64,000 nt of DNA from Patescibacteria group bacterium (GCA_028717685.1 JAQUNI010000001.1:481094-545093), one strand, 5' to 3'; shown: positions 5,361 through 10,648, counted from the stretch's first letter. Notes: a model not told the origin generated them from the letters alone. Numbers and translations: made by a program.

Positions 5361-8300
5361 TCAAAAATGATTAGAAAACAAAGGGCGTATGGCGAATGCC
5401 TTGACTTAAAGAGACGATGAAGGACGTAGCAGGCTGCGATAAGCCTCGGGGAGCTGCCAAGCAAGCTTTGATCCGAGGATTTCCGAATGGGGAAACCCTA
5501 TGTAGAAAACCTACATAATCCGCCCAAATTTTTGGACTGTTAAAAATAAAAAGCTCCTCAAAAGGGGAGCATGTTAAAAAAATTGCTGGCAAAAGTGCTA
5601 AAAAAGGAGAGAGGTTGGAATTAATCTCTTGGGGACATAGGAGCTCCTTAGTCTATTTGGCGCGCGCCTTTAGCTCCACAATTCCAGACTTCACTTTCTC
5701 TCCTTTCGTCATGTTTCTTAGAATCTCCTACGTTCAAGAAACTATCTGTAGCTGTATTGCTACTAATAGTATATAGCAAATTCAAAAAATCATCAACAGT
5801 CTAAAAATTTGGGCGGAAGACAACCCGGGGAACTGAAACATCTTAGTACCCGGAGGAAAAGAAAAAAAATCCGCGCTTTGCGCGGAACATTCCCTGAGTA
5901 GTGGCGAGCGAAAGGGGAAGAGCCTAAACCTGTCGCCGCAACTCACTGTGTTCCCCTCACATCCGTTCGGGGTAAACTTTTCAGTTTACTCCGATGAGCG
6001 AAGCGACGAGGAGAGCCTAGCGAGTTGCGACGGCCGGGGTTATAAGACGAATACGCTATCAGGGCAACCTGGTACAGAGTTTAATAAAATGCGACTTGCC
6101 TAGCAGAAGGCGCCTGGAACGGCCCACCAAAGAAGGTAAAAGTCCTGTACGCGAAAAGCGTTGCATCTCTGACGTATCTCGTTCTTGAGTACTACACCAC
6201 CAGGGAAATGGTGTAGGAAGTCGGGAGTACTACTAAAGTCGCTCCTCACTTTTGTTCGGAGCTCCTTAAATTTAAAATGCAAAATGAAAAATGCAAAATT
6301 AAGGTAGAAAATTTTGCTTCGCAAAATTTTATTAATTTTAAATTTTGAATTTGTAATTTTAAATTGGAACGACGAGCGAAAGCGAGGAGCGATCTCCCAA
6401 GGCTAAATACTCTTTAAGATCGATAGTGAACTAGTACCGTGAGGGAAAGGTGAAAAGCATCCCGGTGAGGGAGATGAAATAGTATCTGAAACCATACGCT
6501 TACAAAGAGTGGGAGCCACCGTGCCTCACTGCGTTCGGCACGGAATTTCTAATTTCTAATTAACCGAATTTCTAATCAATTTCTAATGCCTTAATGTCTA
6601 ATGTCCAAAAATTTTTGGTCATTGGGTTATTGGTCATTGGGATTTGATTAGAAATTAAAAATTAGAAATTAGTCATTCCGCCACGCCGAGCATAGCGAGG
6701 CGCGGTGGTGACCGCGTGCTTTTTGTAGAACGAACCAACGAGTTAGCTGTGTATTGCTCGTATAAGTCCGTTTTAAGCGGACGTATGCAAAGTGAAAGCG
6801 AGCGTTAATAGCGCGTTTTAATTCATTAGGCAAATAGAATTCTTCTGTTTGCCTTAATAATTAAAGGCAGTACGCACTAGACCCGAAGCCAGACGAGCTA
6901 GCCTTGGTCAGGGTGAACTTTGGGTAACACCAAAGGGAGGCCCGCACCCATTGGTCGTGTAAAGCCATGGGATGAACTGAGGCTAGAGGAGAAATTCCAA
7001 TCGAGTCTGGTGATAGCTGGTTCTCCCCGAAATAGCTTTAGGGCTAGCGTCCTATTTACAAATTTGGAGGTAGAGCACTGGATGGAGCAGGATGGGATTA
7101 CTCCCTACCTGTCCCAACTAAACTCCGAATTCCAAACTTTTACGATAGGGCAGTCAGAACGGCGCGGATAAGCGCGTCGCTCAAAAGGGAAACAGCCCAG
7201 ATTCTTATCTAAGGTCCCTAAGTTCAAGTTAAGTGGTAAAGGAAGTGAGATTACAGAGACAATTAGGAGGTTGGCTTAGAAGCAGCCATCCTTTAAAGAA
7301 AGCGTAACAGCTCACTAATCGATCGTGATCTTGCGCCGAAAATGTAACGGGGCTCAAACTTGACACCGAAGATAGAAACCGTTGCTCCGCAACGGAAGCT
7401 CCAATAATCAAGAATCAAATTCCAAACAAGAACCAATAACCGAAATTCAAATAACCAAACAATCTGGTTTTGAACTTTGGAAATTGGGATTTAAGATTTG
7501 TTTGGAAATTGGGATTTAAGATTTGGAATTTCCGCCGCGGAGCGGCGGTGGTAGGGGAGCATTCTATATCCAGTAAAGCCAGCCTGTAAGGACTGGTGGA
7601 GGATATAGAAGAGAGAATGTTGGTATGAGTAACCTAAAGTCCGGTGCGAAACCGGACCACCGTAAGTCTAAGGTTTCCTGGGCAACGTTAATCAACCCAG
7701 GGTTAGTCGATCCTAAGTCGCAAAAAACGACGATGGAAGAGTAGGTTAATATTCCTACACTACTATTAATTTTGACGGAGGGACGCCACAGGATAGATTT
7801 CGTGTCCTAATGGTTTAGGCATTGCTGATCCGTAGCCGGAAGAAACAGGCAAATCCGTTTCTTCAATTCCAAACGGCGAAGATTATCAAAAGGTTTATTC
7901 CGCAAGGAATAGGTCAATGAAATTGATTCCAGTGGCCAAGAAAAACTCCTAAAATTAGATTAATAGTACTCGTACCGTAAACCAACACAGGTAGACGGGT
8001 AGAGGATACCAAGGTGTTCGGGTGATCCTTAGCTAAGGAATTCGGCAAAACAACTAGGTGTAAGTTCGCAAGATACCTTGCCTCAAAACATTTCGCTTGC
8101 GCTTCGTGTTTCTTAAGAAATCCCAAAAATCAAGCGCCAAGCATCAAACAAATTACAAACAGAAAAATTCCAAGCTTAAAAGGGTTTGGAATTTAGGAAA
8201 TCGAAATTTAAGATTTGTTTGTCTGGCTTCGCCAGATCTCGCGAGAAGCGAGAAAAATTATGATTTGGGATTTTGAGCACGGAGCGCTAGCGGAGTGCGT

Positions 8301-9156
8301 ATGGGGTCGCAGTTAAAGATCCAGGACGACTGTTTACCAAAAACACAGGTCCCTGCAAAGCCAATAAGGCAAAGTATAGGGGCTGACGCTTGGCCAGTGT
8401 CGGAACGTTAAGAGCGGGGGTGAAAGCTCTCGCTTTAAGCGCCGATGAACGCCGGCCGTAACTATAACGGTCCTATGGTAGCGAAATCCCTCGTCACTTG
8501 ATTAGTGACCTGCACGAACAGCGGAACGATCCTGGAACTGTCTTAGCTAAGTGCCCGGTGAAATTGCATTTGCCGGTAAAGATGCCGGCTAGCTGTATCA
8601 AGACGAAAAGACCCCGTGGAGCTTTACTATAGCTTGGTATTGATTTGAGGTTTTGGATGCCGAGAATAGGTGGGAGACTTTGAGCGTCAGCTTTCGGGCT
8701 GACGGGAGTCGCAATATGGAATACCACCCTTTCGGAGTCTTAAATCTAACCCCTTACCTAGCAAGGATTTTTGTGGTAAATTAAGAAATTTTAATCGGAT
8801 TTATATTGTGCCTTAATTACTTAAAAATTCTTAATACTTTAGCGAGCCTAAAGGCTCGTATCTTTGCTAGGTGAGGGGGAAAGTGCCTGGTGGGTAGTTT
8901 GACTGGGGCGGTCGCCTCCTAAAAGGCAACGGAGGCGCGTATAAGGTTCCCTTGCTCCGGATGGAAACCGGAGTGAAAGTGTAAAGGCATAAGGGAGCCC
9001 TGCTGCGAGGGGTACATCCCGAGCAGTTACGAAAGTAGACCTTAATGATCCGACTCTTACTTGTAGGAGTGGAGAAGCCCAACGGATAAAAGTTACCCCG
9101 GGGATAACAGGCTGGTCGCGCCCAATAGTCCACATAGACGGCGCGGTTCGGCACCT

Positions 9157-9546
9157 CAACAACATCGGGGTGCCATGGCAGTAATGCCATAACAAAAATC
9201 TGACTTATAACGGTGAAGCCCTAATTCTTTTAATATCTTTTGTGGCATAAGTGATATAATAAGTAAAAGAGATAAATATAAAAGAATGGGTAATACCGTG
9301 GGAAGTTTAACTCAATTTCAAGGCCAAAGTTAAGAAAGATTCTGAATGAAAATATCATTCCATCTATGAAATATAAAATTGAGTTATAACCCCGTAGAGA
9401 CTTGTCCCTAAGGAGGGACGGATAGAAGTGGTGAATCAAATAAATTAAATTACGGCTTCTATAATATGTCAGCCCCCTCACTTTTTAAAGGGGAGGGGTG
9501 AAGATATAGTCCGATCCTCTTAGTAATAAGAGAAAATGCCGACAAG
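9157..9546 (+). other. putative ORF-less group I intron in 23S (between GGCACCU and CGAUGUCGGCUC, peptidyl-transferase region, around E. coli position 2500)
   Basis: 390 nt insertion splitting the invariant GGCACCUCGAUGUCGGCUC block; upstream exon ends in U, insertion ends in G; no ORF. Confidence 0.6.
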
Positions 9547-9639
9547 CGATGTCGGCTCGTCGCATCCTGGAGGTGAAGAAGCTTCCAAGGGTTTGACTGT
9601 TCGCCAATTAAAGCGGTACGCGAGCTGGGTTCAAACCGT

Positions 9640-10122
9640 CAACCAAAACCTATTTACTGTTAGATAGGTTTGGCGGCTTCTAGTGGCAACACTAGAATGA
9701 AAAACTGACTCATATCGGTGAAATCCTAGTTGACAATTAACCTGTCGCATACTAGGATAATACCGAGGGAAGTCACGGCCGTACCTCACTATCGTTCGGT
9801 ACGGGCAAATTTTTAATTTTTAATTTTTAATTTTTAATCAATTTTCAATGATTTAATGCTTAAATTTTTAAACTCAATAGAATAGAGAGTTTAAAAATTG
9901 AGTCATTACAAAATTGGAATTTGTTTGAAAATTAGAAATTGAAAATTAGAAATTCCGCCTGAACGCAAGTGAAGTGCGGCTGGTGACCCCGTAGAGACTC
10001 AAGGATAAGAACAATCCTTGGATTTAATCTTTAAAAAAGATTAGATAATACGTCAGTGCTCCAAAAAATTATTTTGGAGTGTGGTATAGTCCATGCCTTG
10101 TGGCAACACGAGGAGAAACATG
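9640..10122 (+). other. putative ORF-less group I intron in 23S at the classical I-CreI-type site (AACGU^CGUGAGACAG, around E. coli 2593)
   Basis: 483 nt insertion splitting GGGTTCAAACCGT | CGTGAGACAGGTTGG; exon ends in U, intron ends in G; no LAGLIDADG/GIY-YIG ORF. Confidence 0.6.
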
Positions 10123-10648
10123 CGTGAGACAGGTTGGTCTCCTATCTGATACAGCCGCATAAAGTCTTGAGGGAGCCCATTTCCAGTACGAGAGGACCGA
10201 AATGGATAGACCTCTGGTGTACCAGTTATCTTACCAAAGGTAAACGCTGGGTAGCTACGTCTAGTTAGGATAAATGCTGAAAGCATATAAGCGTGAAGCC
10301 GTTCCCAAGATTAGGACTTTCCGCCGCAAGGCGGAGGATTTGGTCGGAGAAGACGACCTTGATAGGCTCTAGGTGTAAGTCCTGCAAGGGATTTAGCCGA
10401 GGAGTACTAATAGATCTATTTCAATCATCTTTTGACCCCGTTAGATAAATTTATTTTCAAAAAGCGCATAGACTAAACAAAGTTATAACCCAAAAATTGA
10501 ATTTGAGTTTTAACCTTTTTAGTCTTGCGTTGCACTAGTGTCTTCACAACAAAAATCGGCTTTTAAATTGGCAAGCGTGGTGGTGATGATTGCTGTCTTT
10601 ATTACGATCGTCTTTTTACTGACCCCTCCGGCGATCGGGATGAGGTAA

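Follow-up and report, generated by a model that had tools for sequence, protein, structure and literature searches.

Bacteria of the candidate phyla radiation (CPR, or Patescibacteria) are known for ribosomal RNA (rRNA) genes that carry many insertions (Brown et al. 2015; Tsurumaki et al. 2024, PMC11270868). Of all CPR 23S genes, 82% contain insertions of 100 bp or more, a single rRNA gene can hold as many as 16, and group I introns account for about 45% of those in the 23S (222 of them without an open reading frame, ORF); CPR rRNA insertions were also reported to be missing from transcripts (PMC11270868). Short non-intron insertions located at the sites of classical intervening sequences (IVSs) were considered in the same study to be "probably" RNase III IVSs. 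In a classical IVS, a stem-loop takes the place of the tetraloop of 23S helix 9, 25, or 45 and is cut in its stem by RNase III (PMC4990558), an enzyme that CPR genomes have kept (PMC12641178). Here, we analyzed the 23S rRNA gene in a 64,000-nt stretch of DNA from a Patescibacteria group bacterium (GCA_028717685.1, JAQUNI010000001.1:481094-545093), referred to as the window in the following. This gene is 5052 nt long, vs. 2904 nt in E. coli, and is probably the single-copy-type 23S of a Candidatus (Ca.) Doudnabacteria bacterium, unlinked from the 16S and interrupted by two kinds of selfish insert, namely long hairpins and group I introns. Sequence comparison showed that most of the hairpins belong to families of palindromic elements present in repeated copies.

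The gross pattern (an unlinked, intron-rich 23S with IVS-like inserts) is a published CPR hallmark (Tsurumaki et al. 2024). The window resembles the CPR rRNA genes described so far in its host, in the many insertions per 23S, in the ORF-less and LAGLIDADG-bearing group I introns clustered towards the 3′ end, and in the short non-intron insertions at IVS sites. It differs in the nature of these short inserts, which were left uncharacterised or called "probably IVS" in PMC11270868, where hairpins, palindromes, and repeats are unmentioned, while here they resolve into families with members at several sites as well as in a 16S gene and an intron. New within the known phenomenon are therefore families of rRNA-colonising, sense-oriented hairpin elements; in the literature searched, insertions of CPR rRNA were nowhere described as families of hairpins, palindromes, or repeats, although the coverage of this search was incomplete and the evidence weak. 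The IVSs of Salmonella, Leptospira, Coxiella, Campylobacter, and Alphaproteobacteria are similar in that, in helix 25 or 45 (as well as 9), the terminal loop has given way to an extended stem-loop with complementary ends, and in that they are sporadic among close relatives, with a suspected mobile origin (PMC4990558). In contrast to these, the window has seven occupied sites in one gene, including helices H15, H22, H63, and H79, no S23p ORF, AT-rich interiors with a 7-nt periodicity, and one family that extends across sites and lineages.

Hairpins and introns within the 23S rRNA gene

The complete gene lies on the + strand at 5369-10420, as do all inserts described below. Its match to the bacterial large-subunit rRNA model RF02541 reached 1839.7 bits (gathering score 50) and started at 5369, while a pairwise alignment to E. 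coli rrlH (locus L002) covered positions 1-2904 in E. coli numbering (Ec), with all conserved domains collinear. An earlier annotation made without database searches (hereafter the sequence-only reading) had described a 23S of about 5 kb with its conserved blocks in the right order, and both statements held. It had also proposed an alignment to RF02541 as a check, which identified the gene but misplaced its 3′ end: the global covariance model (CM) alignment ended at 9237, with model positions forced into intron sequence, and a local CM rescan stopped near 9190 (model position ~2530). The 3′ end and the intron limits were consequently set by an affine-gap pairwise alignment to rrlH, which overruled the global one.

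Related loci were collected by using the MscS-like gene upstream of the 23S as a probe (56 loci from GTDB species representatives), a gene that is directly followed by the 23S in many Patescibacteria lineages. The closest relative is the metagenome-assembled genome "Ca. Doudnabacteria bacterium SO_2017_SWC_9" (L004), with 99.1% identity in the 23S core, in line with the view of the sequence-only reading that intron-bearing, unlinked rRNA genes point to CPR, a pattern that is indeed typical (PMC11270868). Since the flanking DNA of L004 is only 81-94% identical to the window, it represents a different genome. Core identities decrease to ~95.5% in two metagenome contigs (L122, L133), 86.7% in L029, and ~76% in Moranbacteria and other distant Patescibacteria loci, with L031 containing too little 23S to compare. 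Across the relatives, 23S lengths range from 2963 nt to 6.9 kb, introns are located at Ec 1917-1951, 2262, 2449, 2500, 2593, and 2656, and other inserts recur at H9/10, H15, H25, H45, H63, and H79.

At least seven long hairpin inserts, with limits taken from the pairwise alignment to the E. coli 23S and from folds, replace the terminal loops of the surface helices H10, H15, H22, H25, H45, H63, and H79. Each of the large ones folds as one long hairpin (z -7.5 to -15), and none of 100-200 shuffled sequences was as stable. Six of them, bounded by inverted repeats, had been reported by the sequence-only reading and are real, with slightly wider limits than proposed; the seventh, at H15, had been missed together with two small expansions, so that its list was incomplete. 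A direct-repeat analysis revealed that the hairpins of the window share sequence with each other, and the relatives resolve at least two families, designated A and B. The canonical family A element of the window is the H25 insert (6517-6708; fold -108 kcal/mol, z = -15.1; nhmmer E = 1e-8 and 1.9e-5), whose position is one of those known for classical IVSs. Two further family A elements are the H22 insert (6238-6393, Ec 406-421; z = -8.1; nhmmer E = 5e-4 for the 5′ arm and 1.3e-3 for the 3′ arm) and a hairpin inside the second intron, nested in its P6 loop (9773-9986, z = -12.9), which is 91.6% identical to the H45 element of L004. The GC-rich H15 hairpin (~5929-6038, Ec ~272), ~93 nt beyond the consensus according to its fold and to a 93-nt insert in the CM alignment, is a short form in which the family A base module is present twice, nested and without an AT-rich arm, with the 5′-arm motif at 5955-5970. 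Degenerate kin of family A are present in H45 (7378-7549, z = -8.9), again a classical IVS site, where common AT-rich arm words are combined with a reduced base and the direct-repeat families D1-D4 are common to other hairpins, and in H63 (8089-8296, z = -8.2), a composite hairpin with AT-rich words in common with the H45 element (repeat family D2, 85%). The H79 insert (8750-8878, ~130 nt) belongs to family B, with 19-bp terminal inverted repeats (CCCCTYACCTAG.AAGGAT; nhmmer E = 8.6e-25).

The H10 insert (5519-5817) replaces Ec 150-176 and has a branched interior of ~250 nt that belongs to no family (fold -104 kcal/mol, z = -7.5); it adjoins the classical helix-9 IVS site without lying within it. 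Its 23-bp closing stem (inverted repeat I5, 96% complementary) is the 23-nt inverted repeat that the sequence-only reading had quoted as an example. Rfam searches with the H10 and H15 inserts gave nothing meaningful, only sub-threshold matches to plant microRNA precursors. With respect to the features of classical IVSs, a helix loop replaced by an extended stem-loop was found at H25 and H45, while H15, H22, H63, and H79 are non-classical helices; complementary termini of approximately 20-30 bp are present in the H10 insert (23 bp, 96%), in family A (21 bp), and in family B (19 bp). The two small expansions behave differently from the large hairpins, being conserved within the lineage as expected of expansion segments: the 47-nt one at 6818-6864 (Ec ~653), which belongs to no mobile family, has counterparts of similar size at the same site in L004, L122, L133, L029, and L049, and the one at 7858-7918 (Ec ~1500) is likewise kept across the lineage.

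The two insertions closest to the 3′ end had been called intron-like, with limits that proved exact, and they occupy known group I sites. Intron L2500 (390 nt, 9157-9546) lies between Ec U2500 and C2501, and intron L2593 (483 nt, 9640-10122) between Ec U2593 and C2594. Both begin after a U and end with a G (borders U9156/C9157 and G9546/C9547; U9639/C9640 and G10122/C10123), and both contain the J8/7-P7 sequence expected of group I introns (J8/7 consensus GAAGAUAUAGUCC in L2500, variant GGUAUAGUCC in L2593); in L2500, P1 is formed by GCACCU with GGGUGC, including a U·G pair. The match of L2500 to RF00028 (42 bits, E = 1.6e-9) is under the gathering score of 50, yet highly significant, and the L004 orthologue of L2593 reached 48.8 bits (E = 1.3e-10). 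The window copy of L2593 itself had no RF00028 match because of the 214-nt hairpin nested in its P6 loop; an Rfam scan of this intron gave nothing meaningful, only sub-threshold matches of its long hairpins to plant microRNA precursors. Within the inserts of the window no convincing ORFs were found, the longest (40-115 aa) mostly overlapping conserved rRNA. In L004, which has four introns, LAGLIDADG ORFs are present at L1931 (E = 9e-21), L2262 (7e-50), and L2500 (7e-29). Both window introns occupy recurrent intron sites, with a homing endonuclease in the related copy at L2500. The two parts of the window L2500 share 98% and 96% identity with the L004 intron, whose 477-nt endonuclease segment (LAGLIDADG_2, E = 6.8e-29) is missing in the window. 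The two halves of L2593 are 99% and 94% identical to the L004 orthologue, which has no hairpin but 23 nt at the P6 point; L122 and L133 carry a family A hairpin in this intron.

Judged from these features, we conclude that both 3′ inserts are ORF-less group I introns, and the comparison with the near-identical relative shows that L2500 descends from a mobile intron with a LAGLIDADG homing-endonuclease gene. Both would be transcribed inside the pre-rRNA and removed by guanosine-initiated self-splicing with exon religation. The CPR intron sites compiled in PMC11270868 include position 2593. Other group I introns at L2593 and the window copy agree in the insertion point following U2593, in the group I core, and in LAGLIDADG endonucleases in relatives. 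In contrast to the others, the endonuclease gene is gone from both window introns, and a family A hairpin has colonised the P6 loop of L2593. The site is that of the Chlamydomonas chloroplast intron Cr.LSU and its endonuclease I-CreI, and bacterial 23S introns are known in Coxiella, Simkania, and Thermotoga.

Hairpin families A, B, and C

Family A has the consensus gCCGTrCCTCACTGCGTTCGGyACGGAAT, followed by AT-rich arms and AATTCCGCCCGAGCATAGCGAGGyGCGGc. Across 14 unique canonical copies, 19 of the 21 positions of its base duplex are paired in at least 13, with compensatory changes at positions 1, 2, 5, and 6, invariant wobble pairs at 14 (G·U) and 17 (U·G), and two conserved mismatches, A×C at position 11 (14/14 copies) and C×A at position 15 (10/14). 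Five consistent differences between the arms are all transitions, and each arm can also fold separately (92 of 98 pairs formed). The interiors have a 7-nt periodicity (autocorrelation 0.53 at lag 7 vs. 0.24-0.28 at lags 3-5). The interior of the window H25 element is 78% identical to that of a Moranbacteria copy in H10, compared with 55 ± 6% for shuffles. As the mismatches resemble at first sight a bulge-helix-bulge (archaeal) splicing motif, this possibility was considered and rejected, the base containing 1×1 mismatches 3 bp apart instead of two 3-nt bulges separated by 4 bp.

All 13 family A hits obtained with nhmmer in 800 kb of sequence (the window plus the GTDB loci) were located within 23S genes, and neither nhmmer nor a regular-expression search found the family elsewhere in the 64 kb of the window. 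A metagenome scan with the core of the family A 5′ arm gave at least 120 loci. Among the matches listed, at least about 25 were Patescibacteria-type hairpins, situated in H25, H45, H63, H79, the L2593 intron (L122, L133), and one 16S gene (L098); all of the ~24 rRNA-borne copies among them were in sense orientation, and one similar element was intergenic (L114). In total, more than 25 copies of family A were found, and its base is present in at least six 23S helices, one 16S gene, and the P6 loop of an intron, in Doudnabacteria, Moranbacteria, and other Patescibacteria. In viral contigs, the family A core had 5 chance hits in unrelated, mostly GC-rich sequence without a hairpin or AT-rich arms, and family B had none; these scans thus provided no evidence for a phage vector.

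The conserved 21-bp base with its two mismatches (invariant A×C at 11, C×A at 15) and fixed G·U wobbles, the arm differences consisting only of transitions, the spread to many sites, and the sense orientation within rRNA genes allow the tentative idea that family A is a portable, strand-specific RNA cassette, whose base might be the recognition site of a double-strand-specific nuclease, either RNase III or a dedicated one, ensuring removal from structured RNAs. Should this be true, a nuclease-recognised base would be what lets a mobile hairpin colonise essential RNA genes. A separate group of about 45 loci among the matches listed from the metagenome scan consisted of GC-rich repeat clusters (...CCGAGCGGTAGCGAGGCATCCCTCACTTCGTTCGGGACGGCGTCCC...), sometimes in tandem with a 167-nt period (L113:2589-3143, L081, L164, L061, L072, etc.), on contigs of ~43-45% GC that have no rRNA, with several sample ids recurring. 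In these clusters, a CATC loop connects the two strands that make up the family A base duplex, giving a circular permutation and a hint that the duplex may be a recognised module. An Rfam search of 20 loci of the non-CPR repeat families found only tRNAs and no family match.

Family B is a ~130-nt element that resembles miniature inverted-repeat transposable elements (MITEs), with the terminal repeats CCCCTCACCTAgAAAGGAT ... ATCCTTTcTAGGTGAGGGG. Six full copies and remnants were found, one copy in H79 of the window, four in L004 (H10, H15, H22, H79), and one in the rRNA promoter of L005, a locus whose adjacent MscS-like protein is 89% identical to that of the window. A pattern search gave 3 matches vs. 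0 expected, and a truncated 41-nt remnant lies in intergenic DNA of the window at 12192-12232, upstream of a tRNA-Ser gene. The L005 copy (L005:2232-2361) sits in the -35 box of the promoter, with CTTGA on both flanks and TTGACA rebuilt. This is the single case with an apparent target-site duplication; none was found at the rRNA-borne copies of family A or B.

Terminal inverted repeats and dispersed copies are thus present in both families (inside and outside rRNA genes for family B), as in MITEs, repetitive extragenic palindromic (REP) doublets forming hairpins (REPINs), and Rickettsia palindromic elements, all of which are short, non-coding, multicopy palindromes with terminal inverted repeats that are tolerated inside genes. 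Further similarities are the apparent 5-bp target duplication at one family B copy, as in MITEs, and the family A arms, each itself a small hairpin, as in REP doublets. Family A is unlike these elements in being found almost only in rRNA genes, only in sense orientation, without target duplication and without an identified partner transposase, be it a REP-associated tyrosine transposase (RAYT) or another. A Pfam search with 40 proteins of the window detected neither a transposase or RAYT nor an RNase III or homing endonuclease, and hence no autonomous element to accompany either family; for the REPIN comparison in particular, arms that fold singly stand against copies that are almost all in rRNA genes and the lack of a RAYT in this protein set, and no GTAG or CGTC tag could be assigned.

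A third set of palindromes (family C, CCCCGTTAGAGAA / TTCTCTAACGGGG; 8 matches vs. 1.4 expected) is found at 3197-3251, 5212-5242, 10436-10448, 10650-10684, and 10784-10796, i.e., in the leader, the 23S-5S spacer (10436-10796, inverted repeats I7, I13, I14), and one intergenic spacer. L004 lacks the leader copy and the spacer part 10650-10840, and its match to one 67-nt copy lies at another location. According to the sequence-only reading, the inverted repeats of the rRNA inserts are made of the AT-rich words of intergenic DNA. This applies to the interiors, whose words recur in the intergenic spacers 55-85, 2034-2058, 2639-2670, 49598-49715, and 59769-59787, and not to the closing inverted repeats, which are GC-rich conserved motifs in most hairpins. 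AT-rich hairpins built of 7-nt words (AATTTTT, GAAAATT, AGAAATT), in the same style as the rRNA hairpin interiors, were also observed in the spacers 1-140, 2030-2075, 2600-2675, 49600-49716, and 59700-59790, which suggests that a slippage or palindrome-growth process may act genome-wide.

Turnover of the hairpins and their fate in RNA

The window and L004 have different sequences at six of the eight variable sites (H10, H15, H22, H25, H45, and the P6 loop of the intron), and only H63 and H79 are homologous. At H10, L004 contains a family B element and L005 the same stem with another interior; in L004, H15 and H22 also hold family B elements, H25 an unrelated 106-nt GC-rich hairpin, and H45 a canonical family A element, the latter as in L122 and L133. 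The H63 insert belongs to a block 96% identical to L004, with only 29 additional nt at this site in L122 and L133. The six differing sites are therefore occupied sporadically among close relatives, as described for classical IVSs. Copies at different sites within one gene were 98.4% (L103), 92.9% (L122), and 83% (L029) identical; for same-site copies of different genomes the figure was 78-82%, below the within-gene values, which is the mark of recent copying or gene conversion. Taken together, these comparisons showed rapid copying or exchange of the hairpin elements between sites at the DNA level.

The evidence leans to mobile hairpin elements of the IVS type. In the pre-rRNA, their duplexes would be removed by RNase III without religation, and by analogy with classical IVSs we consider it somewhat more probable than its opposite that the long near-perfect duplexes are cut out in this way, leaving a functional but fragmented 23S; hairpins that stay uncut would protrude harmlessly as expansion segments. 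Alternatively, the hairpins might be true expansion segments, kept in the mature 23S and projecting from the ribosome surface, where they could offset ribosomal proteins that CPR lack. Retention is sterically plausible, as H15, H25, H45, H63, and H79 are the helices at which the eukaryotic expansion segments ES5, ES7, ES15, ES27, and ES31 emerge, and the small expansions 6818-6864 and 7858-7918, kept across relatives, are probably retained. For the large hairpins we regard this explanation as unlikely, because six of eight variable sites differ in sequence between genomes that are 99.1% identical in the core and because long perfect duplexes are substrates for the RNase III that CPR genomes keep. 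In addition, the same element is found in an intron loop, where a ribosomal role is impossible, and family B also in intergenic DNA and a promoter; the intron-loop and intergenic copies argue against a ribosomal function.

Two other explanations concern the origin of the extra sequence. The 7-nt word periodicity and the similar AT-rich word hairpins in intergenic spacers would fit an origin of the hairpins in place, through slipped replication and growing palindromes in a genome biased towards AT, without any movement between sites and with convergent words. This is very improbable and largely refuted by copies at different sites that are 92-98% identical over ~200 nt, by a GC-rich 21-bp base with an invariant A×C common to different helices, a 16S gene, and distant lineages, and by the interior identity between Doudnabacteria H25 and Moranbacteria H10 (78%, shuffles 55 ± 6%). 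That the inserts are assembly artefacts, i.e., chimeric joins of repeats in a metagenome assembly, is scarcely credible. Such artefacts do occur: the Logan contig L003, which seemed to lack the H10 insert, switches to the 23S of another organism after ~80 nt and was discarded as chimeric. Against an artefact in the window, the conserved blocks are collinear and complete, and independent assemblies have the same architecture, intron sites, and homologous elements, most clearly L004 (also L088), L122, and L133, with the more divergent L029 and, for the 5′ end only, L005 among the supporting assemblies.

Several points weigh against mobile, IVS-type hairpins and group I introns as the explanation of the whole gene. 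Excision at seven sites would give an eight-piece 23S, beyond any well-studied bacterial case. Family A has no target-site duplication, and gene conversion between sites could give the same pattern; among the 40 window proteins scanned, neither a transposase nor an RNase III was found. The H10 insert, and the H63 insert in part, fit no definable family, and both intron scores remain under the RF00028 threshold of 50 bits, the window copy of L2593 having no match of its own.

Two further 23S inserts were observed on the side. In L029, the H63 insertion (L029:3220-3666) contains a tRNA-Ile(GAT) gene (3469-3547, ARAGORN), with a second tRNA-like sequence just upstream, while in the window tRNA-Ile(GAT) lies 2.6 kb upstream of the 23S. 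In E. coli Nissle 1917, one rrl copy (L001:775-4044; NZ_CP007799.1 4464057-4467326) is 3270 nt long vs. 2904 nt, with a BLAST match in two pieces, implying a putative insertion of ~366 nt.

Surroundings of the gene and significance

As stated by the sequence-only reading, the 23S is followed by a 5S gene (10950-11066, + strand, RF00001 83.7 bits) and is not accompanied by a 16S, since no small-subunit rRNA match to Rfam was found anywhere in the 64-kb window. The same reading placed tRNA-Ile(GAT) 2.6 kb upstream with three protein genes in between, which was borne out by ARAGORN and Rfam (2676-2750, + strand; one of six tRNAs found by Rfam in the window) and by the ORFs 2816-3130, 3312-4058, and 4190-4882, encoding an RNHCP-domain protein, a membrane protein, and the MscS-like protein. 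A probable rRNA promoter, read from the sequence, is located on the + strand at 5014-5041 (TTGACA at 5014-5019, TATAAT at 5036-5041, 16-nt spacer), and its motif is kept in L004 and L005. The strand 5357-5372 (GGGGUCAAAAAUGAUU) is complementary to 10423-10439 (AAUCAUCUUUUGACCCC), both on the + strand, and the stem formed by them would act in 23S processing.

An origin-type cluster (yidC, jag-like, dnaA, dnaN, recF) was observed at 39418-45856, with the cumulative GC skew reaching a local minimum near 42-44 kb. Were oriC located there, transcription of the + strand 23S, 31-36 kb leftward, would meet replication head-on, an unusual arrangement for rRNA; the GC skew in the window largely tracks gene orientation, limiting its use as a replication guide. 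Other observations in the window are a 1239-aa protein with an N-terminal T4SS-pilin/TrbC domain and CARDB, followed by three small T4SS-pilin-domain proteins (24747-30598), and a SMODS-associated NUDIX-domain protein (13110-13814) that may be defence-related.

The basic picture is textbook CPR biology and not news; the possible value of the locus lies in the "uncharacterised short insertions" falling into sequence families. If confirmed, the base of family A and the terminal repeats of family B would serve as a searchable model with which CPR rRNA genes could be annotated and correctly trimmed, of use in phylogeny and primer design. The families would also constitute a natural experiment on mobile hairpins invading essential structured RNAs, with near-identical genomes carrying different elements per helix, and a defined RNA duplex with which the recognition by CPR RNase III or other nucleases could be probed, as well as the question of whether CPR ribosomes run on a 23S in up to eight pieces.

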